The notes under the pieces were generated by a model, which saw nothing but the letters and a program-made list of their open reading frames with translations, was not told the origin of the DNA and did not search any database. From IMG/VR virus record IMGVR_UViG_2721755712_000003, positions 1 through 28,313 of that record: a stretch of 28,313 bases of DNA; one strand, written 5' to 3'. Position numbers and translations under genes: made by a program. Shown here piece after piece: positions 2,161 through 28,313 of the stretch; position 1 is the first letter of the stretch, and every line of letters begins with the position of its first letter. This DNA is from a virus (lineage: Duplodnaviria > Heunggongvirae > Uroviricota > Caudoviricetes).

Positions 2161-2493
2161 TTATCCCTTTGGTTTAGTAAGAAATACTAAATTTCCGATA
2201 ATGATATTGCAAATAACCCATAAGCCTCCAATAGCAATTAAACCTAAGCCCGTACCAATAACTGTACCGGCTTTTTCGGCATCGGATGTGGCGTTGTTTA
2301 TTATTTCACCCACCTCTCTTAGCCCAACACAAATCGTGTAGATTATAAAAATATTAAATAATATGAAAAAATACTTAATGAGTTCTCCAAAAAATGAACG
2401 TTTAAGTTTTTTCAGTTGTTTGCCACAAGCAGGGCAAGACAATACTGAATCGATCACCTCTTTCTGGCATTCAGGACATTTGATTAATGCCAT
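2161..2493 (-). CDS. zinc-ribbon membrane protein (CPECQ...CPACG followed by two hydrophobic helices)
   Basis: Start ATG 2491-2493 (MALIKCPECQ...) with GGAGG SD at 2502-2506. Stop is 5 bp before the start of the downstream secreted-protein gene, suggesting one operon. AT-rich. Confidence 0.6.
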   Translation of the reverse strand: MALIKCPECQKEVIDSVLSCPACGKQLKKLKRSFFGELIKYFFILFNIFIIYTICVGLREVGEIINNATSDAEKAGTVIGTGLGLIAIGGLWVICNIIIGNLVFLTKPKG

Positions 2494-2549
2494 ATAATCT
2501 GCCTCCTTTGGCTCTCTACTAGCTGACGTTTGTAACAAAACATTTTGAT

Positions 2550-2579
2550 TTTATCAGACTTTTTATTGATATGTGTCAA
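2550..2579 (-). promoter_or_regulatory. candidate sigma70 promoter for the zinc-ribbon operon (TTGACA, 18-nt spacer, GATAAA)
   Basis: Minus-strand TTGACA is the reverse complement of 2574-2579 and GATAAA of 2550-2555, about 50 nt upstream of the start codon. Pattern match only. Confidence 0.3.
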
Positions 2580-3001
2580 TTGATTAGCTGGTATAGAGTG
2601 AGACAGGATGCCTTATCGACCTTACTCTGGCAACTGATTGACGGGGGATTGCTCCCCCGTCGCGGTTTCCTTACTGCTTACACTGTAAGAACGCCGCAAA
2701 CTCCGCTCCCCAGAAACTCATCCGTATTTCACACAGCGAACCGTGCAGCATCCAGATGATGAGGATTGCCGTCACGCAGAACGTGATGGCCGTAAGCGAT
2801 TTTTGCGACATAGCACTTGCTCCTTTTCCGGAGAGGCGCTAACCTTTCACTTGTCAAGGTAATGCGGTTAGGGCCTCGGTTAAACAGATATGTTTTCCGG
2901 GGCCTTTCCACATCCGGCCTTCGGGTATTCCCTCCGACCATCAGCCGAAAGGCACCCGCACGTAATCTATCGCTTTTTTGTTACTCCGGCAATTCTGCCT
3001 G

Positions 3002-3262
3002 TTAATCCTGAGGTAAAGGCAAACTCATCTGATTGTTTCCCCTGTGTGAAGCTGGCAGCTCATGCCACGGGATACCTTCTGATGAGTGAACGCCGGAGGC
3101 GTGTTTCGATGTGAATTTATGGAAAGCTTCCAGTGTTGAGAAGCATACGCCGCATTCCAGATTGTTACACTGGTAATACTTTTGCCGCACGGTGTTTGAA
3201 TCATTTTCCGGACGACTGGTGCGGATACGGGCAGATGCGCCACAAAGCGGACAACGGAACAT
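3002..3262 (-). CDS. ogr: Ogr/Delta-type zinc-finger late-gene transcriptional activator
   Basis: 86 aa, MFRCPLCGASARIRTSR...YYQCNNLECGVCF with the C-x2-C...C-x4-C arrangement typical of P2 Ogr. GGGAGG SD before ATG at 3260-3262. Confidence 0.9.
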   Translation of the reverse strand: MFRCPLCGASARIRTSRPENDSNTVRQKYYQCNNLECGVCFSTLEAFHKFTSKHASGVHSSEGIPWHELPASHRGNNQMSLPLPQD

Positions 3263-4149
3263 AGCGACCTCCCTTAACGTGGTGCTGCCGCTATTCTAAG
3301 TTGCTCACTCTGTTTCCGCTATCCATTCCGGGATTTTTGCCTCAAGCTCAAGCTGCGTGGTAAAGCCGCTGTTATCAATGGTGTGCCCGGCTTTTGCAAT
3401 AATCCAGTCCTGATTATCAATCTCGCTTTTAAATCCTGTTACCGTGCCATGCATTTCGGGGTAGAGCTCTGCACGTCCACGCGCCAGCGTGATGGAGAAT
3501 GATGCGGCTCCGCGTTGTAGTTGCTGCCACTTTGCCGCCGCTGCGCGTCTTGCTGCCTGCTCGTTCTGATAAGTCTTGCGTAACACAAACACATTGCCTT
3601 CCGCGCCTTCCATATAATCACCTTCACGGCTGCTGCTTTTCTCCTTTTTGGGTTTTGGCGGTTTACGGCGTTTCACGCTGACTTTTTTCTTTTTCCCGTA
3701 ATTAAGATCAAGCCAGTAGGCGCGTACCCCCGTATACGCCTCGCGGTCAGCAATGCGGAACTGATGGCGATCGCCGCTGCTGCGTGTAATGGCGAACGAG
3801 GGCAACGGCTGGCCCTGTGCGTTCACGCCACCACCTGGCATGATGAATAACAGATTGCCGCTTTTTACCGTGGTGATTGCACCCAGCATTTCCGCCATGC
3901 GCGTAAGGAAGGACATGTCGCTTTCTTCGGTCTGGTCGGCGTGGTCGATTTCGATATCCATCAGCATTTCGCTGATTTGCGGTTTCAGACCATACCGATG
4001 AGCGATGGCGGATACCACACGCTCAACGGTCACATCATGCCAGGACACCTCACGTTTAACGTTAAATTCATCCCAAAAATCTGCGCTTCTGGCTGAAACA
4101 GTCAGCCTGTCCGGCGGTCCTTCGTGAGCGATTTCATCAACAATGTAAG

Positions 4150-5370
4150 TGTAGATTCAATTGGTCAACGCAACAGTTATGTGAAAACATGGGGTTGCGG
4201 AGGTTTTTTGAATGAGACGAACATTTACAGCAGAGGAAAAAGCCTCTGTTTTTGAACTATGGAAGAACGGAACAGGCTTCAGTGAAATAGCGAATATCCT
4301 GGGTTCAAAACCCGGAACGATCTTCACTATGTTAAGGGATACTGGCGGCATAAAACCCCATGAGCGTAAGCGGGCTGTAGCTCACCTGACACTGTCTGAG
4401 CGCGAGGAGATACGAGCTGGTTTGTCAGCCAAAATGAGCATTCGTGCGATAGCTACTGCGCTGAATCGCAGTCCTTCGACGATCTCACGTGAAGTTCAGC
4501 GTAATCGGGGCAGACGCTATTACAAAGCTGTTGATGCTAATAACCGAGCCAACAGAATGGCGAAAAGGCCAAAACCGTGCTTACTGGATCAAAATTTACC
4601 ATTGCGAAAGCTTGTTCTGGAAAAGCTGGAGATGAAATGGTCTCCAGAGCAAATATCAGGATGGTTAAGGCGAACAAAACCACGTCAAAAAACGCTGCGA
4701 ATATCACCTGAGACAATTTATAAAACGCTGTACTTTCGTAGCCGTGAAGCGCTACACCACCTGAATATACAGCATCTGCGACGGTCGCATAGCCTTCGCC
4801 ATGGCAGGCGTCATACCCGCAAAGGCGAAAGAGGTACGATTAACATAGTGAACGGAACACCAATTCACGAACGTTCCCGAAATATCGATAACAGACGCTC
4901 TCTGGGGCATTGGGAGGGCGATTTAGTCTCAGGTACAAAAAACTCTCATATAGCCACACTTGTAGACCGAAAATCACGTTATACGATCATCCTTAGACTC
5001 AGGGGCAAAGATTCTGTCTCAGTAAATCAGGCTCTTACCGACAAATTCCTGAGTTTACCGTCAGAACTCAGAAAATCACTGACATGGGACAGAGGAATGG
5101 AACTGGCCAGACATCTAGAATTTACTGTCAGCACCGGCGTTAAAGTTTACTTCTGCGATCCTCAGAGTCCTTGGCAGCGGGGAACAAATGAGAACACAAA
5201 TGGGCTAATTCGGCAGTACTTTCCTAAAAAGACATGTCTTGCCCAATATACTCAACATGAACTAGATCTGGTTGCTGCTCAGCTAAACAACAGACCGAGA
5301 AAGACACTGAAGTTCAAAACACCGAAAGAGATAATTGAAAGGAGTGTTGCATTGACAGATTGAATCTACA
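4150..5370 (+). mobile_element. IS30 insertion sequence, complete (1221 bp), flanked by 2-bp target duplication AG
   Basis: Left end TGTAGATTCAATTGGTCAACGCAAC at 4150; right end is its imperfect inverted copy (22 of 25 matches) ending at 5370. AG at 4148-4149 and 5371-5372. Length equals canonical IS30. Confidence 0.95.
4212..5363 (+). CDS. insI: IS30 transposase
   Basis: 383-aa ORF MRRTFTAEEKASVFELWKNGTGFSEIANILG... recognised as the E. coli IS30 transposase (HTH N-terminus, DDE core). Confidence 0.95.
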   Translation: MRRTFTAEEKASVFELWKNGTGFSEIANILGSKPGTIFTMLRDTGGIKPHERKRAVAHLTLSEREEIRAGLSAKMSIRAIATALNRSPSTISREVQRNRGRRYYKAVDANNRANRMAKRPKPCLLDQNLPLRKLVLEKLEMKWSPEQISGWLRRTKPRQKTLRISPETIYKTLYFRSREALHHLNIQHLRRSHSLRHGRRHTRKGERGTINIVNGTPIHERSRNIDNRRSLGHWEGDLVSGTKNSHIATLVDRKSRYTIILRLRGKDSVSVNQALTDKFLSLPSELRKSLTWDRGMELARHLEFTVSTGVKVYFCDPQSPWQRGTNENTNGLIRQYFPKKTCLAQYTQHELDLVAAQLNNRPRKTLKFKTPKEIIERSVALTD

Positions 5371-5794
5371 AGTGCCTTTTTCTGTCAGCGGTTCTCCCTT
5401 CCAGCCAATGAGAACCGTCAGGCGCGCGCCCCGTGGCGGTAGCTGCAACTGACCATCCGCATCATCCAGCGTGATGGTGAGCTGGTCCGCCTCAAATCCC
5501 CGGTTGTCGGTCAGTGACAGGCTCATCAGGCGCTCTGCCACGCCTGACAGCGTTTTACCCTCCGCGAGAATATCAAAATCCGGCATTTTTACGGGGTCTG
5601 TGCCCTGACTGAGCAATTGCATGGTGGTGTCGGTCATCTGCTCCCTCCCTGTGCGGCATGGTCGCATGTGCGTGCGGAGGGGGTTACTGCTTTTTGTTGT
5701 CGCCGTGGCGAGAGAACGGCGCAGGGGTGAGATTACGCGCGTGGTGGGTGATGATTGTTGCCGAATCATTTAACGGATACAAGGGGCTGAAGCT

Positions 5795-12470: not shown

Positions 12471-13316
12471 TCAGGCTGGTAACGCCAACATTGTCCAGAA
12501 AAGCGCCCTTATCTCCACGCGTTGCACACCGTGCACATGCAGTGCGGCAGCAATGGCGGACAACGCCACGTCCTGACCGATAAGCCCCTGCTCAGCCAGC
12601 CACTTCCTGAACGACGATTCAGCCGCAGCCAGAATAGGTTCGGATTCCGGGCCGGGATAAAAGTACAGTTTTGCATTCAGCCGCCATGTCACGATTCTGG
12701 CGCTCTGTACGGTCAGGCGGTCGGCCACCGGGCGGGTATCCTCTGCATTCAGAACGGCACGAACGGTATTAAGCAACGCCTCCGTTGCTGTGCCGTCGCC
12801 TTCAGTGGACAGGATGGAAACCGTCACACAGGCCGGAGACGGGCTGATGGCCCGCGCATCACGCACCAGACCGCTGGCGCTGCGTGCAAAATACTCGTAT
12901 GCACCTGACGGGCCAGCAACACTCAGGCCGTCGTACGCCCGCTGCGCCCGCAGTCTCAGCGAGGTGTCGCTCTCCATCACCGCGTCGGTGGTATCCGTTG
13001 CCGGAGTGATAACCAGGCGCTTTGTGTTCATATTGCCCGCGAGGTTGTCCAGGTCTGTCCCGGCGCTGTGGCTTAACATGCAGGCGCGTGCACCCTCATT
13101 GACCCGCTGGCGTAACAGCATTTCACGAAACGCTGTTGTCTGGGCGATAACGTTCAGGGGTTCCGATTCCAGCTCCAGCGCAGCGGAAACGGCTTCACGC
13201 TGTTCGGCGGGATAAGCTGCAATCATCATGGCCTTTGTGTCAGCCAGAATTGCTTCAAAGTCAGGCTCCGCGATGATGGCGGGTTCTGGTAACTGGGAAA
13301 GGTCAACGGCGGGCAT
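12471..13316 (-). CDS. J: baseplate assembly protein gpJ
   Basis: 281 aa, follows W in canonical order; slightly shorter than the roughly 300 aa expected, so the C-terminus may be affected by the adjacent deletion. Confidence 0.8.
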   Translation of the reverse strand: MPAVDLSQLPEPAIIAEPDFEAILADTKAMMIAAYPAEQREAVSAALELESEPLNVIAQTTAFREMLLRQRVNEGARACMLSHSAGTDLDNLAGNMNTKRLVITPATDTTDAVMESDTSLRLRAQRAYDGLSVAGPSGAYEYFARSASGLVRDARAISPSPACVTVSILSTEGDGTATEALLNTVRAVLNAEDTRPVADRLTVQSARIVTWRLNAKLYFYPGPESEPILAAAESSFRKWLAEQGLIGQDVALSAIAAALHVHGVQRVEIRALFWTMLALPA

Positions 13317-13319
13317 GAT

Positions 13320-13670
13320 TTACTCCCTCAGCGTGATGGTTAACTCAACATTCTGCATGGTCTGCATGACAGTGCCCGACAGCGTCACCCCGGCGCGGCC
13401 TCCCGCTTTCCAGACAACGTCAATGGCATCCAGGGCAATGCGGGGTTCCCATCGTGTCAGCGCAATCACGGCAGCACTCATGCATTGCAGACGCGTGGTG
13501 TTATTCATGGGTTCGTCAATCAAATCAGGCACAAGGCTGCCATATTCCCGTCGCATAACCCGGCTTGCCAGCGGGGTGGTCAGGATGTCCCTGACTGACT
13601 GTTTCAGGTGCTCCATATCGTTCAGGTTTCCCGTTCCGTCCGGGTTCATTCCTGTGTAGCGGGTTGTCAC
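13320..13670 (-). CDS. W: baseplate protein gpW
   Basis: 116 aa; position and size between V and J; start overlaps the V stop. Confidence 0.85.
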   Translation of the reverse strand: MTTRYTGMNPDGTGNLNDMEHLKQSVRDILTTPLASRVMRREYGSLVPDLIDEPMNNTTRLQCMSAAVIALTRWEPRIALDAIDVVWKAGGRAGVTLSGTVMQTMQNVELTITLRE

Positions 13671-14248
13671 TGTGGGCCTCCTGTCGAATCGCTGCCGCCT
13701 TTCACGCCACCGTGTTTATGCGTATGCACTGTAATGCCGTTTGAGGTGAAGTTGCCGCCGCTGTGCGTGATATTGCCGCTCATCTTTCCTCCTTTTGTGA
13801 CGTCAAGCGTCGCCGTTCTCAGAAGGTTTGTGCATTCCACGACGGGCGTATCCAGTTTCACGCTGACGGATGCCTGTAAAGTGGCCGTTTTCATGCCGCT
13901 GGCGCTCAGTGCGCCAGCGTCCGCGTCGTAGCGGAACACCGCGCCGTCCGGCGCGCTGATCACGATTTCTTTCAGGCTTTTGCCGGGGGCCGGACTGGCA
14001 TCACTCCACAGGCTGCCAATTATCATGGCGGTTTCCGGGTTGCCGCCAATGCAGGCAATTACCACCTGTTCGCCGGGTGATGGCGGCAGCCACACATTGA
14101 AGGCTCCCGCGCGCGTGGTGTTCCAGCGCAACCAGTCTGTTTCCAGTTCGCCGCTGCGAACGCGCACGCGCCAGGACTTCTCATCAACTTCAGAGATGAT
14201 CCCGGTGCGGATGATATTGCTCAGCAGTCGCATGAGTTCTGCGCTCAC
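13667..14248 (-). CDS. V: baseplate spike protein gpV
   Basis: 193 aa, canonical position; Gly-rich C-terminus. Confidence 0.85.
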   Translation of the reverse strand: MSAELMRLLSNIIRTGIISEVDEKSWRVRVRSGELETDWLRWNTTRAGAFNVWLPPSPGEQVVIACIGGNPETAMIIGSLWSDASPAPGKSLKEIVISAPDGAVFRYDADAGALSASGMKTATLQASVSVKLDTPVVECTNLLRTATLDVTKGGKMSGNITHSGGNFTSNGITVHTHKHGGVKGGSDSTGGPQ

Positions 14249-14889
14249 CGTACAGCCTCCGCAATCCGGCCCAGCACCGTGTTATAAATCAGGCGCTCAT
14301 CTGTCTGGCTGATACCCAGCAGCTCACGTGCCGGGTAATTGGTGAAAATGCCCGGCGCAACCTGATCGCGCTCACCGAACTGATGAACGCGGGCAATACG
14401 TGCGGCCACGCCGCTGTAACCCACCGTCACACCGGAAGCATCTGCACGGGCTTTCAGGTAGCGGGCGGTGCGCAGTTTTACGAACATGGGGACGCGCTTT
14501 GTGCTGTCCTGGTTGATGCGCCGGGTGCGTATTTCCAGAAAACGGTCGATGTCATCCCGGTAAAACGTGCGGATATTGTTTTTATCCTCATCCCACCCGG
14601 TAATGGTTCGCCCGTATTTCCCCGTGTCGTGATGCCAGTTTTTCAGCGTGCGTGCTTCGTTATTCCAGATAAAGCGAATGCGTTCCTGTATCCGGGTTAC
14701 GCGGCGTCTGCGTGGTGTCCACGCGGTCCCGTCCGGCGCTTTCTGTGACCGGATACGCGCCTGCTGGGCGCGGCGTAAATCCTGTGCCAGCTTTCTGGCG
14801 ATGTTATTGATGGCCTGCTGATTCAGGCTGTCGCGGATGGCCTCAAAGGTTTCATCCACGCGGGTGAATGCCTTATCCATCGCTTTCAC
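14245..14889 (-). CDS. S: tail completion / virion morphogenesis protein, gpS-like
   Basis: Between R and V; 214 aa if started at 14889, longer than the roughly 150 aa expected, so the true start may be internal. Confidence 0.6.
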   Translation of the reverse strand: MKAMDKAFTRVDETFEAIRDSLNQQAINNIARKLAQDLRRAQQARIRSQKAPDGTAWTPRRRRVTRIQERIRFIWNNEARTLKNWHHDTGKYGRTITGWDEDKNNIRTFYRDDIDRFLEIRTRRINQDSTKRVPMFVKLRTARYLKARADASGVTVGYSGVAARIARVHQFGERDQVAPGIFTNYPARELLGISQTDERLIYNTVLGRIAEAVR

Positions 14890-18238: not shown

Positions 18239-19243
18239 TTAGCTGTCGGCGAACTTCAGGCCTGTGACCATCGCGCACTTGCCATAGTCTTCAACGACAT
18301 AAGCGTCATTGATGGACTGGTAGGTGGCGATGCGGTTGTATTCCGGCTCGTCTTTCATCAGGCGACGCATTGAGCCTCTCTGCCAGTAAATTGACAGGTT
18401 GTTGAATGAGGTGATCAGCATCGTTGCATCCGGGAAGAACGGCGCAAGGAATACATCCAGCCCACCAATGGTGCGCGATGACAGGATGAGCTGTCCGGCG
18501 AGTAATTCCGCATTGGGATTCTGGCCGCTGATGCTGTTCAGCACGGGCAGACGCAGCGAGTTAAACAGGTTGCGCCCCATAATCACCACGAGGTCGTCTG
18601 CTTCCTTGTGCCATTCATCCAGCAGGGATGAGCGCGCGTCCTGTACCAGTGCATCAGCGTTCGCATACTTACCCGCGTGCGCCACTGTGTTGTCCATGTT
18701 GCGGGAAGTCAGCGTCACGTCATTCATTACGCGTTCACTGGCATCGGTTCTGATGTGCTCCAGCCAGCCCACGTTAACGTCCTGAAGCAGCTTGTTGGTG
18801 CTGAAATTGGATTTTTCCGCGTGTGATGTGCCGTTAAAGCCGATCATGATGCGGTCAAGCGCCACCTGCCGGGCAATCTGTGTGCTGATGCGCGACTGAA
18901 AATCGCTGTGAGCCGCCCAGGCATCAAGCTTCGGGTATGAAATAAACGTGTCGTAGTTCACCTGTTCACACTGGTACTGACGAGCCTTCATATCGACAGC
19001 GTTAATCGGATTACGGCGATCTGTGCCGTCATAACTGGTATTCGTGCGCGCAATCGGCCCGGTGGTGTCCAGGAGAACTTTTTCGCCTTTCTGGTCAGTT
19101 ACACCGATTACATTAATTCTTTTCGTAAATTCGGTACTTTCCTTTGAAGCGTTTTCAAAACGCTGTTGTACCGATGGATTGACGGTAAATCGCGATACCA
19201 GCGCAGAAACCGGGATATTGTTAAGCGACGCCTGCTGCGTCAT
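18239..19243 (-). CDS. N: major capsid protein gpN (5' end clipped relative to P2 N)
   Basis: 334 aa; FTVNPSV, RINVIGV and DAYVVEDYG blocks match P2 gpN. Homologous reading continues about 11 codons upstream of the first ATG into the P ribosome-binding site with no start codon. Confidence 0.9.
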   Translation of the reverse strand: MTQQASLNNIPVSALVSRFTVNPSVQQRFENASKESTEFTKRINVIGVTDQKGEKVLLDTTGPIARTNTSYDGTDRRNPINAVDMKARQYQCEQVNYDTFISYPKLDAWAAHSDFQSRISTQIARQVALDRIMIGFNGTSHAEKSNFSTNKLLQDVNVGWLEHIRTDASERVMNDVTLTSRNMDNTVAHAGKYANADALVQDARSSLLDEWHKEADDLVVIMGRNLFNSLRLPVLNSISGQNPNAELLAGQLILSSRTIGGLDVFLAPFFPDATMLITSFNNLSIYWQRGSMRRLMKDEPEYNRIATYQSINDAYVVEDYGKCAMVTGLKFADS

Positions 19244-19288
19244 GTAGCAGCCCAGCTTGTTACGGGCATTAATTACTCAGGGGGAGCA

Positions 19289-20542
19289 ATGATTCAGGAC
19301 GCTTTTGTGCGCCAGCGTGCGCGGCAACTTTACTGGCAGGGTTATCCGCCCGCAGAAATATCACGTCTGATGGGAATAAACCCGAACACGATTTATGCGT
19401 GGAAAAAACGCGACCAGTGGGATGAAACGCCCCCCGTGCAGCGTGTCACGCAGTCCATCGATGCGCGCCTCATCCAGCTTACTGAAAAACAGAATAAAAC
19501 AGGCGGTGACTTTAAGGAAATAGACCTGCTGACCCGGCAGCTTAAAAAGCTGCATGATGGCCAGCCGGATGTGATGGCCGCAGGAAAGAAAGGCCGGGCG
19601 AAAAAACTTAAAAATCATTTCACGCCGGAACAGATTGCCGCACTGCGGGAAAAAATCATCAGCAGGCTGGAGTGGCATCAGCGGGGCTGGTTTGACTCCC
19701 TGACACTTTGCAGGGAAGCCGGGATACGTAACAGGATGATCCTGAAATCCCGACAGATTGGGGCGACCTGGTATTTTGCACAGGAAGCTCTGCTGATGGC
19801 GCTGCGTGACGATGTGGCGCAACCTTACCAGCGTAACCAGATTTTTTTGTCTGCGTCGCGTCGTCAGGCGTTCCAGTTTAAAAGCATTATTCAGAAGGTC
19901 GCGGCTGAAGTTGATGTGGAGCTGAAAGGGGGCGATAAAATCATCCTCTCCAACGGCGCAGAGCTGCATTTTCTCGGCACTTCTGCTGCGTCGGCACAGT
20001 CCTATACGGGCAATTTTTATTTTGATGAATTTTTCTGGGTCAGTCGCTTTGCTGAACTGCGCAAGGTGGCTGGCGCTATGGCAACCCTCAGCGGACTGCG
20101 GCGCACCTACTTCTCCACGCCATCCACCGAAACGCACGAGGCGTACGCCTACTGGAACGGCGACCGCTGGAACGAGAAAAAGGCCTCGCATAAACGCCAG
20201 CGTTTTTCTGTGGACTGGAAAACGCTGCATAACGGGCTTATCTGCCCTGACCGGACTTGGCGGCAAATTGTCACGCTGGAAGATGTGGTTAATCACGGCT
20301 GGAAACACACCGATATCGACGAAATTCGTGATGAAAACACCGAAGACGAGTTCCTCAATCTCTATATGTGTGAGTTTGTCCGCGAAGGGGAATCGGCATT
20401 TAACCTGAATATCCTGATTGGCTGCGGTGTTGACGGATACGACGACTGGAAAGACTGGAAACCTTTTGCTCCCCGCCCGATGGGGAATCGTCCGGTATGG
20501 ATTGGGTATGACGCAAACGGCAGCAGTGGCAACGGCGACACC
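19289..20542 (+). pseudogene. P: terminase large (ATPase) subunit gpP, 3'-truncated at about aa 418
   Basis: GGGGGAG SD before ATG 19289; terminase-like sequence up to ...GYDANGSSGNGDT, after which the ORF is the antisense of gene A. Confidence 0.85.
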
Positions 20543-20544
20543 GT

Positions 20545-21822
20545 GCGGATGCCATACCAGCGCAGGCCGTCGCGGTTCAGTTTCTTGCGGACCGCCGCAA
20601 AAAACGAGTTAACCAGGTAATCGCTGGAGTCGCGCATAGTGGCCCCGTTCCATTTGGGATTCGGATGACCGTTCTCCGTTGTTGCGTGGTATTTTGACGG
20701 GCAGGTGACAGTCAGAAACACCGCTCTGTCGCCACGGGCTTCGGCCAGAAGTTCCAGCCCCTTCATGGTGGCCATCATTTCTGCCTTACGGTGAACCGGG
20801 TTACTTACTCCCGCGTAATACACTGTCTCAAGATCAATCGTGAACCCGTCTTCGTTTTCCAGCATGAAACTTTTCAGGAAATCGCGTGTTTTCTCGCGCT
20901 GTGCGCGAAACTCGCTTAACGCATCCTGGCTCAGATAGGGCGATGTTTTTCTGGAAACCAGACAGGCGGCGCGGAGTTGTTCTTCTCTCCACTCGCAACG
21001 TAACAGCCACAGTTTGCGTTTCCACCATTCCGCACAGGTCAGGCGAAGGATTGCGCCCGGCAGCAGCTCCGTGTCTGGTTCGTTCCTCCGGCCTTTGTCT
21101 GTTGTCAGTGCGTCATAATGCGGAGGCATGGCGTGCAGGTGTAACGCCATGCGGGCCAGCATCTGATACGCCTTCAGCGTTACATCCATGGTCAGCTCGC
21201 CATCAGTCGCACCAAAGCCATCGCAGAGTTTTTCGAAGGTGCTGCTGAACATCGCCGCCGTCATGGTGGCCAGCGTCTGTATCTGGTGTTTGTTGAGCTG
21301 CGGCAGGTAAAGCAAATCGTCCAGGCGTTCGCGTCCGGCAAGGGAGCGATAACCCGGTGTCAGCCAGTGTCCGTCAGTGCGATCCAGACGTTCGAATATT
21401 TTGCGCAGGGTTCCGCGTGCATAGCGTTCTGCCTGCCAGCTCTTTTTGCCTTTCCGGCGATCGACTTCCTGTTTTTTGCGCAGGAAGGAGAGGTGGCGAA
21501 TAAGCGGATCGCGCAGATAGGACGGCAGCAGGCGCAGCGAGGCCATGGCTTCATCCACCGCGCCGCGTGCCTGTCTTCTGGCGTCTCCTGCCAGCGTGAT
21601 GGTTTTGTCCTGTTTTTCCTGTGCGTCCAGGCTTTTATTAATCAGGTTGCCCAGTGGCGTGGCAGAGAACGCCGCATCAGCCTTTTCCTGTCGGCGCTCG
21701 TTCTCTGCCTGGTAGGCATCCAGCCAGGAGGAAAGCGCGGATTCAGGTGCGGGGATCCCCGTTCCTTCACGCCCCACTGCGTGGCGCGGTTGTTGCCAGT
21801 CCCTGATGTACTCTGTCGTCAT
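20545..21822 (-). pseudogene. A: replication initiation endonuclease gpA, 3'-truncated before the HUH active-site region
   Basis: N-terminal about 425 aa is gpA-like (…FLTVTCPSKYH…RWYGIR) and stops resembling gpA where the Val-Glu-Pro-His-His-Asp-Gly block would follow; beyond that the ORF is antisense of P. Confidence 0.85.
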
Positions 21823-21828: not shown

Positions 21829-22194
21829 TTACTGCGTCATACCGTTCAGGGTGTCACGGCAAACGGCAGCCAGCCGCTGAATTTCCAGCACGGTGTCTTC
21901 TGTGTCGGCATAGCGATGTGTGATGCGGATGCTGTCGGCAATCACATCGACGATTGCAGAGGATGGGCGCTGGTAAATGCCAATAACGGACGGAGTGCCA
22001 CCTTCAATGCGGTAAAGCCTGTAATTTCCCTCGTGGCTGTCAATCATGTAGCGACCATCAATAACAATCTTTCCGTCAGCGAGCTGCGGTACAGGCAGGG
22101 ATTTCAGGTACATGTCATAACGTTCACGCACGCGAACGGCAAGATCACGCTCTGTGTTGAGCAGGTATTCAAGAAAGTCGTTGGCGAGAATCAT
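21829..22194 (-). CDS. hypothetical early protein, 121 aa, immediately upstream of A
   Basis: Stop 6 nt before the A start; no recognisable motif. Confidence 0.5.
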   Translation of the reverse strand: MILANDFLEYLLNTERDLAVRVRERYDMYLKSLPVPQLADGKIVIDGRYMIDSHEGNYRLYRIEGGTPSVIGIYQRPSSAIVDVIADSIRITHRYADTEDTVLEIQRLAAVCRDTLNGMTQ

Positions 22195-22266
22195 TGCGGC
22201 AATCCTCTTGTTACAGATGTGCGAAGGCCTCCTGCCGCAAGGTGCAGGAAAGGCCCGGAACAGGAA

Positions 22267-22497
22267 TTAATGGAGTTTGTTTTGCTGCTGGATGAGCTGC
22301 TGAAGCTCGCGCAGATCATCCGCCAGATAACTGAAAACAGCGGATGAGTAGAGGTTTGAAAGTTCGCAGCTACGCTCATGCAGCATATTGATGTGCATGA
22401 TTTTAGCGACGCGGAATGCGCGGGAAAGTCTGCGGTTGATTTCAGTCTGGATGTGACGACGCTCCGCGATAGCGCGGTGCTGTTTGCGGTTTGCCAT
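22267..22497 (-). CDS. hypothetical basic 76-aa protein
   Basis: AAAGAGG SD 7 nt before ATG 22495-22497; preceded by a structured, GC-rich leader. Confidence 0.45.
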   Translation of the reverse strand: MANRKQHRAIAERRHIQTEINRRLSRAFRVAKIMHINMLHERSCELSNLYSSAVFSYLADDLRELQQLIQQQNKLH

Positions 22498-22674
22498 GGT
22501 GTGGCCTCTTTGGTTGTAAGTTTTGAAAACTCACCATCCAGAGCTGCGAAACTGTGGGTGGCGAGACGTACGGGGTTCGCAGTACCGGCAACCAAAGAAC
22601 CCGGCCCGACCGAAGTCGGCCCCGTACGCCCCGCCATAATTCTGACGCGAAAAAAACGTGGCAATACAGTACGC

Positions 22675-22702
22675 ACAAAAAAACCGCTGGCGCGGTTGTG
22701 CG
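22675..22702 (-). terminator. intrinsic terminator (hairpin followed by T7 on the minus strand)
   Basis: Minus-strand RNA reads CGCACAACCGCGCCAGCGGUUUUUUUGUGCG; the T-run is the complement of 22675-22681. Lies downstream of the SPFH gene. Confidence 0.55.
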
Positions 22703-22864
22703 CTTTGGTTGTCAGCAGGCTGCGAAACCCGGCACCCGTTTTATGAGGTGCAGCGAAAATGTAACCTGACTGATTGCGGCATGGCAAGCGGTTTTTTTGT
22801 GAGAACGGCATACTAAAAAATCCTGATACTGCTCCGGCCAGCGGTTTGCACTGGCCGGGTGTCA

Positions 22865-23695
22865 TTACTTCACGGGAACGAACGGAACAGCGGTGTTACT
22901 GGTCATGTATTGCGGCAGCGTGCCGTTCCATTTGTTGATTGCTTCCAGCTCCATAACGCCGGGATTCTGGCGCAGAGCTTCGCCGCGTAAACGAATGGCG
23001 TCGGCTTCAGCCTGGGCTTTTGTGCGAATGGCATCGGCCTGTCCGGCAGCTTCTGCGCGCAACATGTTGGCTTCTGCTTCGCGTTGCTTGACTTCCTGTT
23101 CGCGTTGCAGGGTTTTCTGGTTTGCCGTGACTTTGGCGTTAATGCTGTCGATAACGGTTGGCGGATATTCCGGTTTACCGACATAAGAGAGGCTCATGAC
23201 CTGAATACCGATGGGGGTCATCTCTTCCTGAATATCTTTAAGTGCTGAATCCAGCAGTTCAGACTTACCACCGTCGATAAACTTATCGGTGGTCATTTTG
23301 CTGGCCAGTCGGTTGAGTGCATCGGCGATCTTCTGGCGCAGGTCAGTGTCGGTAATGTCGTCCACGCCTTTGCGGTAGGTCTGAAACACCGTGGTAACTT
23401 TGGATGGATCAACTTTGTAGGCCACGCCGATGTGATAGCCGATGGTTGTGCCGTCACTCATCTGGAAGTTGAACGGCTCATCGTAACTCTTCATTTGTTT
23501 GAAGGTCGGGAAGATGTAAACCTCTGTATTCCAGCCTGTCCAGTAGCGGCCAACGCCAACCACTTCACCGACGCCTTTGTCGTCGCCCAGTTTGTTGACT
23601 TTGATGCCCACATTACCTGGCTCAACGCGATCGCAACCAACCAGCAGGATGGCGGCAAAAAGCGGGAGAATCTGAAAGAGTCTGAATTTCTTCAT
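22865..23695 (-). CDS. SPFH/band-7 (stomatin/prohibitin-like) lipoprotein
   Basis: 276 aa, lipobox LLVGC, SPFH-like core followed by an Ala/Gln/Glu-rich coiled coil (QREQEVKQREAEANMLRAEAAGQADAIRTKAQAEADAIRLRGEALRQ). Start overlaps the upstream gene stop (ATGA). Confidence 0.75.
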   Translation of the reverse strand: MKKFRLFQILPLFAAILLVGCDRVEPGNVGIKVNKLGDDKGVGEVVGVGRYWTGWNTEVYIFPTFKQMKSYDEPFNFQMSDGTTIGYHIGVAYKVDPSKVTTVFQTYRKGVDDITDTDLRQKIADALNRLASKMTTDKFIDGGKSELLDSALKDIQEEMTPIGIQVMSLSYVGKPEYPPTVIDSINAKVTANQKTLQREQEVKQREAEANMLRAEAAGQADAIRTKAQAEADAIRLRGEALRQNPGVMELEAINKWNGTLPQYMTSNTAVPFVPVK

Positions 23696-23895
23696 TGTTT
23701 GATTTCCTTGATGTACTTACTGAAAAGGCGAACAACGCCTGCCGGGTACAGCATGGCAATGAAAATTCCCAGCAATACCAGGAAGGAGCTGTCTGATGAA
23801 ATCATTCGGGGGAGTAGTCCTGCATACAGAATGAGAGAGACGAGGACGCATACCAGCGCCCACATGTATGCGCGAAACCAGGTCTTTTTGTTCAT
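23692..23895 (-). CDS. small two-helix membrane protein, partner of the SPFH gene
   Basis: 67 aa with two hydrophobic helices; translationally coupled to the SPFH gene. Confidence 0.55.
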   Translation of the reverse strand: MNKKTWFRAYMWALVCVLVSLILYAGLLPRMISSDSSFLVLLGIFIAMLYPAGVVRLFSKYIKEIKQ

Positions 23896-23906
23896 ATCGC
23901 GGTCCT

Positions 23907-24206
23907 TTACTGGTTAAGGAAAAAATCGAAAACGTTGTCGATGCGTTGCAGCGGCTCCTGCTGCATTGCTTCCGGCGTTTCTGATTCACCTGGTGACTCC
24001 AGCGTCGCGCAAAAATCCTTGATTTCATGATGGAGCGTCAGACGAATGGCAGGAGCCATGGTTCTGGCGTGCTCCAGCTCATCCAGCAGTGCCAGCACGG
24101 CAGATGGCGAGAGCATTGCGCGAAACGCCAGTAATTTTTGATGCGTTGCCATTCGTTGCAGGTCAGTCGCCAGTTCGCGTAATTCCTGGTGGTTGATGGC
24201 GCTCAT
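23907..24206 (-). CDS. hypothetical protein, 99 aa
   Basis: ORF start overlaps the upstream gene stop by 4 nt. Confidence 0.45.
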   Translation of the reverse strand: MSAINHQELRELATDLQRMATHQKLLAFRAMLSPSAVLALLDELEHARTMAPAIRLTLHHEIKDFCATLESPGESETPEAMQQEPLQRIDNVFDFFLNQ

Positions 24207-24469
24207 GCTCTGGCTTCCTTCAGTAGCAGGTTAAACATGTGAGTAAGTGGATTGCTACACCCGAACGGCATCGGGTTTACGTGGTAAGAAGCCTGGCCTC
24301 CTGCTTTGCGAGCGCGACCACCTGTGCTGCGGTTTGTTCTGATGACTAAGCCGCCGCGCCAGAGTCGGCGTAACTCAGCATTGATGGCTGTGGTTGGGGT
24401 ATTCAGTGCTGCGGCGATTTCTCCGCCGCTACAACCCGGATGGGTAGCGATGTAGTCCAGAATGGTCAT
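24203..24469 (-). CDS. small winged-helix-like DNA-binding protein, 88 aa
   Basis: MTILDYIATHPGCSGGEIAAALNTPTTAINAELRRLWRGGLVIR resembles an HTH/winged-helix fold; coupled to flanking genes. Confidence 0.5.
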   Translation of the reverse strand: MTILDYIATHPGCSGGEIAAALNTPTTAINAELRRLWRGGLVIRTNRSTGGRARKAGGQASYHVNPMPFGCSNPLTHMFNLLLKEARA

Positions 24470-24669
24470 CTGCGTGACTCCTGTACCTGTCGGATAAGGT
24501 TCACCCGCACCACATTCGTGGCGCAGAAGTAAGTGCCGTCAGTGAGATAGATGTGATGTGCATCCTTTTCCGAACGATGTTTGTCGATAGTGGTAATCAG
24601 TCGTTCGTCGACCTCGTATTCGCGGTCTCTGGAGGTGAAGCGAACGACAGGAAAATGCTTAATTGCCAT
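24466..24669 (-). CDS. hypothetical protein, 67 aa
   Basis: ATG 24667-24669 overlaps the upstream stop (TAATG). Confidence 0.45.
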   Translation of the reverse strand: MAIKHFPVVRFTSRDREYEVDERLITTIDKHRSEKDAHHIYLTDGTYFCATNVVRVNLIRQVQESRR

Positions 24670-24932
24670 TACACCCTCTTGGCTTTATGTCTGTATTTGA
24701 GCTTTTCTATTTCTTCTTTTTGTTCTTTTAATGTTCTTATGGCTGTGAAAACATTAAAGCCCATAAAATGTGCTCTGTTCGCTAATGTAATACTGGCACC
24801 TTTGTTAGCTATATCATCTTCAATATCAGTGAAATACTGACTGATTTCTTTTAGTGCGGCGCAAAGCTTTGCGAGATCTCGCCCCCTGTCAAAATATGCA
24901 TCCTTCAGTATTTTTTGATTTGTCCTGAGCAT
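24669..24932 (-). CDS. hypothetical AT-rich cargo protein, about 87 aa
   Basis: Internal ATG at 24930-24932 has a GAGGT SD; the longer ORF from 24986 lacks one. Distinctly AT-rich. Confidence 0.45.
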   Translation of the reverse strand: MLRTNQKILKDAYFDRGRDLAKLCAALKEISQYFTDIEDDIANKGASITLANRAHFMGFNVFTAIRTLKEQKEEIEKLKYRHKAKRV

Positions 24933-25021
24933 GCTAACCTCGTGTTTATATATATGGATACCTCCGCGAGTGCGGATTGTTTTCATGTTTTCTTATTTAA
25001 TCGTGTGTTTTATTTGTGCTG

Positions 25022-25135
25022 TTATTCTTCAGTGAAAAAACGCTCAATCTTTTTTACTGAATGAATAATTCGCATAATCCCAATAGCGCAGGCCACCGAA
25101 ATAATCAGAACAAGCCATGAGATAAATATACTCAT
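25022..25135 (-). CDS. 37-aa hydrophobic peptide MSIFISWLVLIISVACAIGIMRIIHSVKKIERFFTEE
   Basis: Translated by hand; ATG overlaps the upstream stop (ATGA). Single predicted TM helix. Below the ORF-track size cutoff. Confidence 0.4.
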   Translation of the reverse strand: MSIFISWLVLIISVACAIGIMRIIHSVKKIERFFTEE

Positions 25136-25374
25136 GCGATATTCCCCAGCTTATACGGTTCAATATGTTCCCCGCATTCTGCGGCACAGATCAGCTCGGA
25201 AAGTTCGTTAAGTGCATCCAGATCATCAGCGTAAAAAGCCACGTCATACAGACTTCGGATTGCTCTGGTCAATGAGTCACGGGCCGCACGTTCAGCATGA
25301 GCGCCTGATGCACTTAAGCGAAAATAAAAACGCTCAAGTGCTTTGTTAATGAGAGTTTTATATTCTTTGCCCAT
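25132..25374 (-). CDS. hypothetical protein, about 80 aa
   Basis: ATG 25372-25374 with AAGGG SD; the ORF-track start at 25377 is GTG. Confidence 0.45.
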   Translation of the reverse strand: MGKEYKTLINKALERFYFRLSASGAHAERAARDSLTRAIRSLYDVAFYADDLDALNELSELICAAECGEHIEPYKLGNIA

Positions 25375-25385
25375 CACAACGCCCT

Positions 25386-25673
25386 TTAATCTGCTTTCTG
25401 TATTTCAGCTTCTGAATCCATACAAATAATTTCGATATAGGGTTCATCGCCATTAACCTGGCGTGCCTTTTCAGCTTCGCTAATGATTTCTCGTACGGTC
25501 TGGTACGGAAGTTCCACAAGCAGCCGTGTGCCGTTCAGATAAATGTAAGTGGCTTCGGCGGCTCCGTTTTTACCCGCCGGAGTCACTCCATCAATAGCGG
25601 ATGCGCGTAATAACAGTTCACCGCGAAAATCAATAAAACGGATAAATACACCTTGTGCATGCTCTTTGGTCAT
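25386..25673 (-). CDS. hypothetical early protein, about 95 aa
   Basis: ATG 25671-25673 with AGGTG SD, 10 nt after the upstream stop; the longer ORF from 25787 would overlap the upstream gene. Confidence 0.45.
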   Translation of the reverse strand: MTKEHAQGVFIRFIDFRGELLLRASAIDGVTPAGKNGAAEATYIYLNGTRLLVELPYQTVREIISEAEKARQVNGDEPYIEIICMDSEAEIQKAD

Positions 25674-25683
25674 AAAGCACCTG

Positions 25684-26025
25684 TTATAAATCAGCCTGTT
25701 TAATAAAACTTTGCCCGCGAAGCAGACGATCAACCGTGCGAAGTGCTTCGTATAATGTGAAATCCTGCCCGAACTGATTGTCGCCACTGCTTAGAGCAAA
25801 AATGCGGTTTCCGGTAAACGGATTGCGTGGGCATTTGTGGATCACGATTCCAGCTTTCTCAATCAGCCAGGCATGCTCGCCGATTTGTTTTACTGGGTAG
25901 CCATCCGGCGTTGCGTGTGTATCACTCAGGCTGTAGCGGATGTTGCTGCGTGATGCACTGGTAGCAAAACGGTTAGCGTGGCGTTCTGCACCATTGCGAA
26001 AGCGTGAATTACGTTGCTGTTTCAT
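25684..26025 (-). CDS. hypothetical early protein, 113 aa
   Basis: ORF directly preceded by a coupled small ORF. Confidence 0.45.
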   Translation of the reverse strand: MKQQRNSRFRNGAERHANRFATSASRSNIRYSLSDTHATPDGYPVKQIGEHAWLIEKAGIVIHKCPRNPFTGNRIFALSSGDNQFGQDFTLYEALRTVDRLLRGQSFIKQADL

Positions 26026-26026
26026 G

Positions 26027-26134
26027 TTAAAGACTCTGTACAGATTTAATTATTCCGGCATAGAGGCCGAACTCAAAATATTTGCGATTAAATCGTATCG
26101 CATTGTTTTCACGTTTTGCGGACTGCTGGTTCAT
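26027..26134 (-). CDS. small ORF, 35 aa (MNQQSAKRENNAIRFNRKYFEFGLYAGIIKSVQSL)
   Basis: Strong GGAGG SD 8 nt before ATG 26132-26134; stop 1 nt before the next start. A further 35-39 aa hydrophobic ORF lies at 26131-26238/26250. Confidence 0.35.
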   Translation of the reverse strand: MNQQSAKRENNAIRFNRKYFEFGLYAGIIKSVQSL

Positions 26135-26277
26135 TTTCGTTTGCCTCCGCACATGAGAATTGCGCCGCTTAAGAGGTAACCGAAGTTAATTGATAGTATT
26201 ACAATTAACATAAGGTCCAATTTGTCCATGCCACACATAATTACCCTCATTGCAGTAGTTGTGGGTTGTCAGGTTTC

Positions 26278-26484
26278 TCACCCGATAAACCAGATAACAA
26301 ACGCTATAAACATCGCCCCAATAGCTGCCGGGAAAAGTCCTTTGGTATAAGCGGCGATATATTCAATGCTGAGTTCAATAAAGCGTTCTTCATGTCCCGT
26401 TAACTTGCGAAACAAATAGATCTCTATTACGCCTATCTCAATAAAAACAAGGGTCAGAATGGCGCTGATGATATGGCTGGTCAT
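26278..26484 (-). CDS. small membrane protein, 68 aa, downstream of cox
   Basis: Two hydrophobic helices; weak SD. Confidence 0.45.
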   Translation of the reverse strand: MTSHIISAILTLVFIEIGVIEIYLFRKLTGHEERFIELSIEYIAAYTKGLFPAAIGAMFIAFVIWFIG

Positions 26485-26490
26485 TTATGA

Positions 26491-26778
26491 CTAAAGTCCC
26501 AGCCACAACAACCATGCGTCGCGGCGTTCTTTCGGTTGCTCAAAAAACGCTTTGCGCATGCCTTCGTTAAATGCTGGCAGATATACCCAGTTTTCTGATG
26601 CACGCGTCTTCACTGAACCTGGTTTCACAAAGTCAATCGTTGGTAACTTTGCAGCGTCAATCATGGTTCTGACGGTTGATTCTTTGCGACCAATCATCTT
26701 GGCAAATAGTTGATATGGCACCGCTTCAAGTGGATATGGTGCTACCTGAATGAACCCCTCAAGCTCTGATTCGCTCAT
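26491..26778 (-). CDS. cox: Cox-like excisionase / lytic-switch repressor
   Basis: ...PYQLFAKMIGRKESTVRTMIDAAKLPTIDF...ENWVYLPAFNEGMRKAF...RDAWLLWLGL matches P2 Cox as remembered (...PYQEFAKLIGKSTGAVRRMIDKGKLPVIDM...YWVYLPAWNNGLKLAY...RDGWLMWLGL). Confidence 0.9.
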   Translation of the reverse strand: MSESELEGFIQVAPYPLEAVPYQLFAKMIGRKESTVRTMIDAAKLPTIDFVKPGSVKTRASENWVYLPAFNEGMRKAFFEQPKERRDAWLLWLGL

Positions 26779-26891
26779 TGTGGTAATCTCCCTAATTCGT
26801 TCGAATGGCTCAAAATGGCTTATATCGGCTTATTTGAGTGTTTTTATGTTTGTGCCCGATGTGGCATGTTGCGATGGAGGATATGCCCGAT
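26779..26891. promoter_or_regulatory. cox/C divergent immunity switch region with phased direct repeats (candidate operators)
   Basis: GGCT at 26807, 26817 and 26827 (exact 10-bp phasing; AATGGCT twice); TGCCCGAT-N-TGGCAT at 26853-26867 and 26884-26898 (14 of 15 identical), the second overlapping the C start codon. Confidence 0.55.
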
Positions 26892-27212
26892 ATGGCATCT
26901 TTGTCAAGCATGGGTGAAAAATTTCGCCTGATTCGTGAAGCAGAAGGTATGACCCGCCAGGAGTTTGCGGATTGTGTTGGGCTGCCTTATGGGACGGTAA
27001 CTAACTATGAGGTGAGGGGGAAGCAAGTAACAGAGGGTGCCTTACTTAAGGTTACGAAACACCCTAAATTTAAGAAGTATGCTTATTGGTTATTAACAGA
27101 TGAAACGATGCCGGAGGTCGGGCAAATTTCTCCGGCTCTCTCTCTTGATGGTTCCTGCAATTCGGAGGGAGATCGCGTTTCAACCGAAACAATCCAAAAA
27201 TTATCCCGCTGA
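26892..27212 (+). CDS. C: immunity repressor C (HTH)
   Basis: ...CVGLPYGTVTNYE...KHPKFKKYAYWLLTDETMPEVGQISPALS resembles P2 C as remembered (...GVPYGTLSYYE...QTPQFTKYTLWFMTNQIAPESGQIAPALA). Start chosen at ATG 26892; the longer ORF from 26838 is less likely. Confidence 0.8.
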   Translation: MASLSSMGEKFRLIREAEGMTRQEFADCVGLPYGTVTNYEVRGKQVTEGALLKVTKHPKFKKYAYWLLTDETMPEVGQISPALSLDGSCNSEGDRVSTETIQKLSR

Positions 27213-27308
27213 GGCCAGAAAACTGGTTAGACCTGCTTTTTGTCTGGTCTGATTATTGCTGGAAAGAGGCTGGAGAAATTGTAGAGCGGTTCATTGGAGG
27301 GCTTCGTA

Positions 27309-28313
27309 ATGTCGATTAAGAAGCTCGAAGATGGTCGTTATTTGCTGGACATCAGGCCGAACGGACGCAAGGGAAAGCGCGTGCGTAAGGTATTTGACAA
27401 AAAATCGGTAGCGGTGGCCACTGAACGCTACATCATGGCGAACGCTGAAAAGCGGGAATATATACAGGGCTACCGTGATCGTCGAACGCTAAATGATTTG
27501 CTTGAGTTGTGGTGGATGTATCACGGCCAGCACAGGCGTAAGGCGGAAGAAGACCGAAAACAACTGCGCAACATAATCAATGAGCTTGGCGCTGATATGC
27601 AGGCTGTGGATCTTGATAAGCTGAAAATTATCGCGTGGCGTTCTCAAAAGATAGCTGAAGGATTGAAACCGTCATCTGCTAACAGGTACATGAATCGGTT
27701 ATCCGGAATGTTTACCGTGCTGAAAAAAATAGGTCTTTGGGATGCAGAACATCCAGTAAGGGGAATTTCTATTCTTTATGTATCTCCACGAGAAATGGCG
27801 TTCCTGTCACAGAAGGAAGTGGCGCTATTGCTCGATACACTGGAGGGCGACTACTGGCGTGTTGCGCTTTTGTGTTTAAGCACAGGGGCGCGCTGGAGTG
27901 AAGCTTGTAAGCTTCGTGGTGAACAGATAGTTCATAACCGTGTAACGTTTCTTGAAACCAAAAATGGCCGGAAGAGAACAGTGCCAATTTCGCAGGCAGT
28001 TTGTGAGGCGATCAAAACCAGAGAAACAGGCGGCTTGTTTGAGGTGAAGTACCGGGAATTCTGCCTGGCGCTGAAAAGAGTTAAGCCCGATTTACCAAAA
28101 GGCCAGGCTGCACATGTGCTGCGGCATACGTTCGCCAGCCATTTTGTGATGAACGGAGGAAACATTATTGCGCTTCAGAAGATTCTTGGTCACGCAACCA
28201 TTCAGCAAACAATGGCATATGCGCATTTTGCACCGGATTACCTGCAGGATGCGGTGGCCCTTAATCCGCTGAAAGGTGGCGTAAGTGTCCACGCAGTGTC
28301 CACGGGGGATTAA
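27309..28313 (+). CDS. int: tyrosine integrase, P2 Int family
   Basis: MSIKKLEDGRYLLDIRPNGRKGKRVRKVFDKKS...LSTGARWSEA...HVLRHTFASHF...AYAHFAPDYLQDA closely parallels P2 Int including the R...HxxR...Y catalytic motifs. GGAGGG SD; stop TAA at 28311-28313. Confidence 0.95.
   Translation: MSIKKLEDGRYLLDIRPNGRKGKRVRKVFDKKSVAVATERYIMANAEKREYIQGYRDRRTLNDLLELWWMYHGQHRRKAEEDRKQLRNIINELGADMQAVDLDKLKIIAWRSQKIAEGLKPSSANRYMNRLSGMFTVLKKIGLWDAEHPVRGISILYVSPREMAFLSQKEVALLLDTLEGDYWRVALLCLSTGARWSEACKLRGEQIVHNRVTFLETKNGRKRTVPISQAVCEAIKTRETGGLFEVKYREFCLALKRVKPDLPKGQAAHVLRHTFASHFVMNGGNIIALQKILGHATIQQTMAYAHFAPDYLQDAVALNPLKGGVSVHAVSTGD

Follow-up and report, generated by a model that had tools for sequence, protein, structure and literature searches.

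In lysogens of P2-family phages, the early operon is normally repressed, as established for P2 and 186. In 186, fil and dhr are annotated as small, non-essential early genes that lie before the terminator tR1 and act on host functions when expressed. Temperate phages also carry accessory gene cassettes, the morons reportedly described by Juhala, Hendrix and colleagues; a classical moron brings along its own promoter and terminator, and lysogens express it. A different arrangement is that of the acr/aca loci, wherein variable small orphan genes lie upstream of a conserved helix-turn-helix (HTH) gene, aca. Last, P2 bears a defense hotspot between its replication gene A and its portal gene Q (old/tin), as well as the Z/fun locus (Rousset et al. 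2022, PMC9122126). Here, we compared with these systems an AT-rich region in a 28,313-nucleotide (nt) stretch of Caudoviricetes DNA (IMG/VR record IMGVR_UViG_2721755712_000003). This whole stretch is called the window, and coordinates are positions in it unless another locus is named. Gene order and sequence matches indicate that the region is part of the early (lytic) operon, read on the minus strand, of a P88-like P2-family (Peduoviridae, Xuanwuvirus) prophage of Escherichia coli adjoining pdxB. The region holds two open reading frames (ORFs), one for a hydrophobic peptide of 37 amino acids (aa) and one for a protein of 87 aa. An earlier note on this DNA had taken both as one AT-rich cargo block with a toxin-like, Kil-like or membrane-depolarizing peptide. 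Our analysis indicates that the AT-rich stretch very probably comprises two separate things, a core peptide gene and a separate single-gene cassette.

The 37-aa membrane peptide gene

The marked AT-richness of positions 24670-25130 pointed out in the earlier note was borne out: the guanine-plus-cytosine (GC) content was 36.2% vs 51.9% for the whole window, and 2.1% of 461-nt windows were equally low. The flanks stood at 46.1% (25136-25673) and 53.5% (23907-24683). Within the stretch, three parts could be told apart: the GC content was 34.2% in the peptide gene, 37.5% in a spacer, and 35.8% in an insert of 274 nt.

The peptide gene occupies 25022..25135 on the minus strand. Its start ATG overlaps the stop codon of the upstream DUF4754 gene by 4 nt (ATGA), as had been described, and a GGGGA Shine-Dalgarno-like motif lies 7 nt upstream. 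The predicted product, MSIFISWLVLIISVACAIGIMRIIHSVKKIERFFTEE, is a single-pass membrane peptide made of one hydrophobic helix followed by a basic tail. Residues 1-21 were indeed strongly hydrophobic (mean Kyte-Doolittle value, 2.48), and the grand average of hydropathy of the peptide was 1.17. The peptide had been called unannotated, which did not hold. It is WP_001363442.1 in a 100%-identical RefSeq record, and it is the same gene as gp07 of phage P88, a 37-aa “membrane protein” (YP_009113050.1; RefSeq WP_001363442.1, WP_000021652.1) with the same 4-nt overlap on DUF4754 and with 97.3% identity to the peptide over 37/37 residues by tblastn. Both ORFs of the region are in fact already in public annotation. 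The peptide is known as a sequence, P88 gp07, and not by a function. It had no match in Pfam, PHROGs, PADLOC, or NCBIfam. A full-text literature search returned no paper mentioning DUF4754, and among the papers found on phage P88, P2-like phages or Xuanwuvirus, no title or abstract dealt with these genes.

Conservation was assessed in 83 loci, that is, 80 IMG/VR loci encoding DUF4754 and three annotated loci. The peptide ORF was intact and had the same ATGA overlap in all of them, so the comparative check proposed in the earlier note, namely conservation in related prophages sharing the flanking genes, came out in favor of the gene. Residue changes among the 83 loci were conservative (V/A/I, L/F, H/N). 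In a few loci, a T run close to the 3' end had changed by one base, which gives a 45-aa form and alters the last residues only. The sole non-intact ORF came from one low-quality, frameshifted phage record. Phage 503458, considered as a diverged comparator, was dropped because its record is full of frameshifts, DUF4754 included.

The substitution pattern was frame-specific. Indeed, in pairwise comparisons of 28 distinct DNA versions, the ratio of nonsynonymous to synonymous polymorphism (pN/pS) was 0.22 in frame vs 1.62 and 1.12 off frame, and the segregating sites at codon positions 1/2/3 numbered 8/3/15. The gene was also kept in more distant relatives. Where DUF4754 was 76-78% identical (L087-L092), the peptide was identical at 31/37 and 35/37 residues and the overlap was kept. 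Strain JNEC-KY202, more diverged, has a 41-aa homologue identical at 25/37 residues (68%), again with the ATGA overlap, and at locus L103 the peptide directly follows DUF4754 with the same junction. Among 5426 complete E. coli genomes, blastn found the peptide gene full-length in 1333, vs 1365 with an at least partial match to the surrounding 1.1 kb (24400-25500).

Taken together, presence in 83/83 loci, frame-specific selection and retention in diverged relatives lead us to regard the peptide gene as a genuine, selected core small-protein gene of P88-like phages. One could argue that the 37-codon ORF arose by chance in regulatory or intergenic DNA, short ORFs being common in AT-rich DNA and the peptide having no family match. 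This is extremely unlikely given the frame-specific substitutions, which are moreover conservative and hydrophobic, and given the integrity of the ORF in all loci, diverged relatives included, bar the low-quality record.

The low GC content of the peptide gene was found in relatives too (34% in L087) and at all three codon positions. It fits the Ile/Phe/Lys/Ser-rich composition of the peptide and gives no sign of foreign origin. Since the peptide is universal while AT-rich, the inference from AT-richness to an imported block fails for it. Addiction or cargo toxins are not typically core early lytic genes of phages that, like P88, can be induced and form plaques. A toxin, Kil-like or membrane-depolarizing activity of the peptide is a possibility.

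The variable slot and its 87-aa occupant

Downstream of the peptide gene lies a slot of variable content, bordered on its other side by a 67-aa gene (24466..24669, minus strand; phrog_3459, E=7.5e-45) that was present in 83/83 loci at 82-100% identity. The slot was empty (about 90 nt) in 44 loci, 529-547 nt long in 34, and 356 nt long, which is the state of the window, in the remaining 5. In the 529-547 nt class, the loci read had a 136-aa ORF. The slot of P88 is empty (3044 to 3131 in P88), whereas that of the window holds the 87-aa insert. Further states were seen in diverged relatives, either genes for 137 and 109 aa or a gene for 92 aa, making five states in all. The 92-aa ORF, all-helical, lies at 1707-1985 of L103, and the 109-aa ORF lies at 3367-3696 of L087, after the 137-aa gene; neither is like the 87-aa protein, and BLASTP found no relationship between the 87-aa and 109-aa proteins. 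Common ancestry of the slot occupants was considered on account of a shared “ALKEIS” stretch (pairwise E=0.054) and rejected, as profile-profile comparisons were negative. By these sequence comparisons, no kinship between the occupants could be detected.

Alignment with four empty-slot loci delimited the insert of the window. The common sequence runs from the peptide stop codon to a stretch ending in TCCGCACTCGCGGAGGTAT (last position 24958) and resumes with GCCAAG (24683). The 274-nt insert thus spans 24684..24957 on the minus strand and stands in place of 8 nt found in the empty allele. For the 136-aa cassette, the entry point lies 10 nt beyond that of the 87-aa cassette. The slot breakpoints lie within 10 nt of one another, just 3' of an inverted repeat.

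All alleles share this inverted repeat, TCCGC-N4-GCGGA (24963..24976), which directly precedes the insertion point. It belongs to the spacer (24958..25021, minus strand), which was kept in every slot allele aligned. Its 5-base-pair hairpin was predicted in the folds of the three alleles folded (window, empty, and 136-aa), and its variants included one compensated pair (TCCGT..ACGGA) and one G-U pair. The whole spacer of the window folded no better than shuffled sequences (z = -0.96), and Rfam found no RNA in the peptide/spacer region. On the plus strand, the repeat scored weakly as a terminator. It might serve as an RNA hairpin, bind a protein, or mark a place of recombination.

The distribution of the 87-aa cassette was narrow. 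It was found in 17/5426 complete E. coli genomes, as a single, chromosomal copy, and all 17 copies were at least 99% identical. The 136-aa family, within which identity was 55-97%, was found in 836/5426. In every locus whose neighborhood was read, the 87-aa cassette sat in this slot, and a strain with identical integrase, DUF4761, and DUF4754 proteins had an empty slot. In draft genomes, the 87-aa gene occupied the slot of prophages with other repressor/cox/integrase modules and with full-length gpA; prophages of GCA_021702555.1 and GCA_018131385.1 carry the gene together with an intact gpA. Its presence alongside differing immunity and integrase modules implies that the cassette moves among P88-like phages by recombination.

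These observations bear on the reading of the whole AT-rich block, peptide plus 87-aa gene, as one horizontally acquired toxin-like, Kil-like or depolarizing module. The low GC content across the block would suit it, as would the small, hydrophobic, and translationally coupled nature of the peptide. Phage 186, besides, has small early genes at a comparable position, of which fil is annotated as blocking division when overexpressed, and a 10-residue motif of the peptide resembles the C-terminus of Fil (shuffle P of about 0.035, in a single test). However, this uncorrected value was not significant once corrected for the nine 186 proteins inspected, BLASTP gave no alignment between the peptide and Fil, and no toxin or Kil family was matched in the four databases named above. 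Moreover, the two genes have differing histories, the peptide being universal and the 87-aa gene being present in about 1% of carriers; the intervening spacer is kept in all alleles; and the low GC content of the peptide gene is kept in relatives and matches the amino acid composition. Such a module is very improbable, and the sequence comparisons refute a single acquired unit of peptide and 87-aa gene. What stood of the cargo block inside the early operon is the 87-aa insert, at about 24684-24957, and what did not is the inclusion of the 37-aa peptide.

The ORF of about 87 aa is present at 24669..24932 on the minus strand, as noted earlier, and its longest reading, that of RefSeq, is 105 aa from 24986. 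Many gene callers picked ATG 24932, which falls within the insert and has GAGG 5 nt ahead of it. The first 9-10 codons of the 105-aa reading, start included, lie inside the spacer common to all alleles, and across slot alleles the triplet at 24986 is GTA, GTG, CTG, GAG or ATG. Of the two, the 87-aa product appears preferable; it counts against this choice that all 8 cargo-bearing variants have ATG or GTG at the 24986 position. At the other end, the last codons and stop of the ORF run into the conserved leader of the 67-aa gene, which it overlaps by 1 nt (TAATG).

The 87-aa protein belongs to phrog_21900, a PHROG without assigned function (E=6.9e-72 over 1-105/105), and had no match in Pfam, NCBIfam, or PADLOC. 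A search of 5.8 billion sequences returned 9 clusters, all at 85% identity or more and all from E. coli where a source was named. A HMMER profile search of 1.84 billion representatives returned its own cluster only, and tblastn against 50,697 phage records returned nothing. The protein is basic (isoelectric point, 9.6) and without hydrophobic segment. AlphaFold2 modeled it as a two-helix hairpin (helices 2-43 and 50-86; mean predicted local distance difference test score, 75), for which Foldseek found no match at E<0.3 in BFVD and PDB, the best ones being designed helical bundles and generic hairpins.

We give about even chances to the 87-aa protein being a functional binder or inhibitor, and several points weigh against it. 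Since the structural matches are to generic helical hairpins, such a role is a class-level guess. Constraint is weak, with a pN/pS of 0.44 vs 0.64 and 0.87 off frame, and segregating sites are nearly even over codon positions 1/2/3 (20/15/21). The lack of any stop codon among the 58 variable sites falls short of significance (P=0.068). The protein is also a rare orphan, with relatives only among E. coli sequences of at least 85% identity, and near-clonal in complete genomes. All this would be in line with an open frame that has no function, being young or in decay, and is carried along in the slot by an AT-rich insert. We consider this the less likely outcome, albeit one to be reckoned with. 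Indeed, an open 87-codon frame would be expected in about 0.2% of cases in 36% GC DNA (from base composition), and the frame is open in all 8 DNA variants despite the variable sites. Conservation also covers the GAGG motif, the ATG, and the TAATG junction, a regular helical hairpin is predicted with fair confidence, and the gene recurs beside different immunity modules, implying spread by recombination.

The prophage and its other genes

The region 24400-25500 was found with 100% identity on the chromosomes of 14 complete E. coli genomes and had a full-length match in 17, many of them O6:H16 or other human isolates. In a phage collection, it matched P88-like Xuanwuvirus only, in two pieces covering 69-75% of the query at 88-96% identity. 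The RefSeq gene order in an identical strain is pdxB, integrase, HTH repressor, Cox-family, 68-aa ORF, DUF4761, 95-aa ORF, DUF4754, 37-aa, 105-aa, 67-aa, MarR-type, 99-aa, 67-aa membrane ORF, SPFH lipoprotein, and, further on, replication endonuclease. This order matches the annotated layouts of 186 and P2, which points to the early operon of a P2-type phage.

The DUF4754 gene, for 80 aa, lies at 25132..25374 on the minus strand (Pfam PF15946, E=2.8e-54; phrog_2549; RefSeq WP_000514277.1). Its start had been placed at GTG 25377, and the RefSeq start is ATG 25374. Downstream of the slot and of the phrog_3459 gene comes a gene for an 88-aa MarR-type winged-helix protein (24203..24469, minus strand; Pfam MarR_2, E=2.1e-7; phrog_1687). 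The whole run from 25377 to 22865 had been described as chained by overlaps of 1-4 nt, which is correct for 5/7 junctions. The overlap is 4 nt at DUF4754/peptide, 67-aa/MarR, MarR/99-aa, and 67-aa membrane/SPFH, and 1 nt at 87-aa/67-aa. In contrast, peptide and cargo are separated by a gap, which measures 35 nt if the cargo starts at 24986 and 89 nt if it starts at 24932, and the 99-aa gene and the 67-aa membrane gene are separated by one of 11 nt.

A second variable cassette occupies 22865-23895 on the minus strand and consists of the 67-aa membrane protein gene (phrog_1130) overlapping the SPFH/Band-7 lipoprotein gene (phrog_200). It was present in 19 of the 83 related loci and in P88, and had no PADLOC match. 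Content also varies directly after the cox-family gene, where the window has a 68-aa hydrophobic ORF (26278-26484, minus strand) and relatives have ORFs of 140 aa and 63 aa, of 202 aa, or other genes. Beyond the second cassette, Rfam identified on the minus strand a C4 antisense RNA (22554-22641; 87 bits, gathering score 45) and an isrK Hfq-binding RNA (22677-22751; 66 bits, gathering score 50). Both lie just upstream of a “derepression protein” gene (22267-22497), and a RefSeq “ash” pseudogene spans the same stretch. This part looks like an antisense-controlled antirepressor module of the P1/P7 type.

The window prophage is defective: only fragments are annotated for its replication endonuclease (20533-21822), terminase (19289-20542), and capsid (18644-19243) genes, the gpA-gpQ defense hotspot is deleted (region 18644-21822), and the baseplate and tail-fiber genes are shortened (about 13400-14700). 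Beside the tail-fiber fragments, a serine acetyltransferase gene is annotated at 12958-13497 (plus strand), which may be a lysogenic-conversion gene. Positions 1-3626 are host DNA with fabB, yfcJ, and flk; the GC minimum of the whole window (31%, for 275-nt windows that start near 2100-2300) lies there, inside yfcJ, and not in phage DNA. Positions 3876-5441, between host flk and phage ogr, contain genes for a TagO-like, a hypothetical, and a zinc-ribbon protein, along with one annotated as a Hok/Gef toxin gene (5301-5441, minus strand). These may be cargo at the prophage end.

Proposed roles and comparison with known systems

Within 22000-27400, the site most like a promoter, TTGACA-18-TATCCT (10/12), precedes the cox-family gene, at 26878..26907 on the minus strand. 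We presume it to be the early, Pe-like promoter of the whole operon, peptide and cargo included, a role suggested by the C-like repressor/cox gene order, as in P2 and 186, and by the consensus scan. That scan found no minus-strand promoter-like site in 25321-22787, although weak or atypical promoters could escape it, and no sense-strand terminator-like site was found by scanning 25713-23784.

We propose an explanation in which a core membrane peptide is accompanied by a swappable early single-gene cassette, and taken as a whole we consider it reasonably probable. Owing to the AUGA overlap with the DUF4754 stop codon, the peptide would most likely be made by termination-reinitiation, in step with DUF4754. 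It would sit in the inner membrane by one N-terminal transmembrane helix, its basic amphipathic C-terminal tail being cytoplasmic by the positive-inside rule. There, in the early phase of the lytic cycle, it would either partner DUF4754 at the membrane or modulate some membrane protein or process of the host. Action at the membrane is likely; any one specific activity, be it division block, depolarization or exclusion, is doubtful when taken singly. A bolder and rather improbable possibility is that DUF4754 and the peptide form a conserved two-part, membrane-directed early module. Further on, the conserved spacer with its small inverted repeat would end at a recombination-prone slot. The 87-aa cassette would have its own ribosome-binding site, be transcribed only with the early operon, and be coupled (UAAUG) to the 67-aa gene. 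Its product may be a dispensable, fast-evolving early accessory protein that binds or inhibits a host or competitor protein, for host takeover or counter-defense, and not a membrane toxin. Because P2-family early operons are repressed in lysogens, both genes would be expressed only with the early lytic transcript, and we hold such early-operon expression to be likely.

Some observations speak against parts of this explanation. Promoter-like sites as a class are no commoner than chance (5 found, 6.8 expected). What ties the peptide to DUF4754 is their coupling and strict co-occurrence. Furthermore, the window prophage has no intact replication, terminase, and capsid genes, and the early genes studied here may thus never serve a lytic cycle.

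If true, this explanation sets apart two things, a small membrane protein that is conserved and an accessory gene that is rare. Carried by prophages in some 25% of the complete E. coli genomes, the peptide gene would be a reasonable candidate for small-protein studies, and the slot would offer a compact natural set of alternative early genes for anti-defense or host-takeover screening. A bolder idea is that the slot is a hitherto unrecognized counter-defense or host-takeover hotspot of P88-like phages, each occupant neutralizing a different host or competitor system early. We deem it rather improbable; if true, the 87-aa helical hairpin would be a new inhibitor. The region would gain in interest should the slot turn out to be such a hotspot, or should a defined host target emerge for the peptide/DUF4754 pair.

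In position and size, the closest studied counterparts of the peptide gene are 186 fil and dhr, which are likewise small genes early in a P2-family operon, after the cox/apl-type gene and before the replication gene. In contrast to the peptide, Fil has 75 aa and no N-terminal transmembrane helix, and, unlike at tR1 in 186, the scan showed no intrinsic terminator after the peptide gene of the window on the sense strand. By tblastn, we found no homology between the early genes and 186 apl, cII, fil, dhr, and orf81-84. The same position, that of a small gene between cox and gpA with inferred early expression, is shared with Kil/Fil-type inhibitors (lambda Kil, Rac KilR, and 186 Fil). No sequence relationship with this group was found, the comparison being to 186 Fil only.

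By its size, single transmembrane helix and charged tail, the peptide is also like Hok/Gef and other type I toxins, as well as small exclusion proteins, and a genuine Hok/Gef gene is annotated elsewhere in the prophage. It might thus be seen as a lysogen-expressed protective factor, or as a Hok-like type I toxin under antisense RNA, serving superinfection exclusion or post-segregational killing. However, the peptide gene is located mid-operon, is coupled to the upstream gene, and belongs to an operon normally repressed in P2-family lysogens. Neither Hok/Gef nor any other family was matched, the consensus scan found no promoter-like site on the opposite (plus) strand in 22000-27400, and Rfam found no RNA at the peptide gene. 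We consider these roles highly unlikely.

As to the 87-aa cassette, two of four moron features were found, that is, presence or absence between conserved neighbors and a GC content of 35.8% vs 46-54% for the flanks. The cassette differs from morons in having no promoter or terminator of its own in the scan and in being coupled inside an early lytic operon. The slot also recalls acr/aca loci by its alternating unrelated small orphans, followed by conserved small genes including a winged-helix one, and by the inverted repeat just upstream. The differences are that no promoter was found at the slot by scanning, that the HTH gene lies two genes downstream, and that the inverted-repeat variants do not track the MarR allele. 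Judging by this analogy, the slot would resemble anti-defense loci only in the pattern of alternating orphans beside a conserved HTH gene. In contrast to the gpA-gpQ hotspot of P2, it lies upstream of gpA inside the early operon and receives single small genes without PADLOC match. Like that hotspot and Z/fun, it is a fixed position in P2-family genomes where unrelated genes swap, and its variation is ordinary temperate-phage mosaicism rather than a demonstrated toxin cassette.

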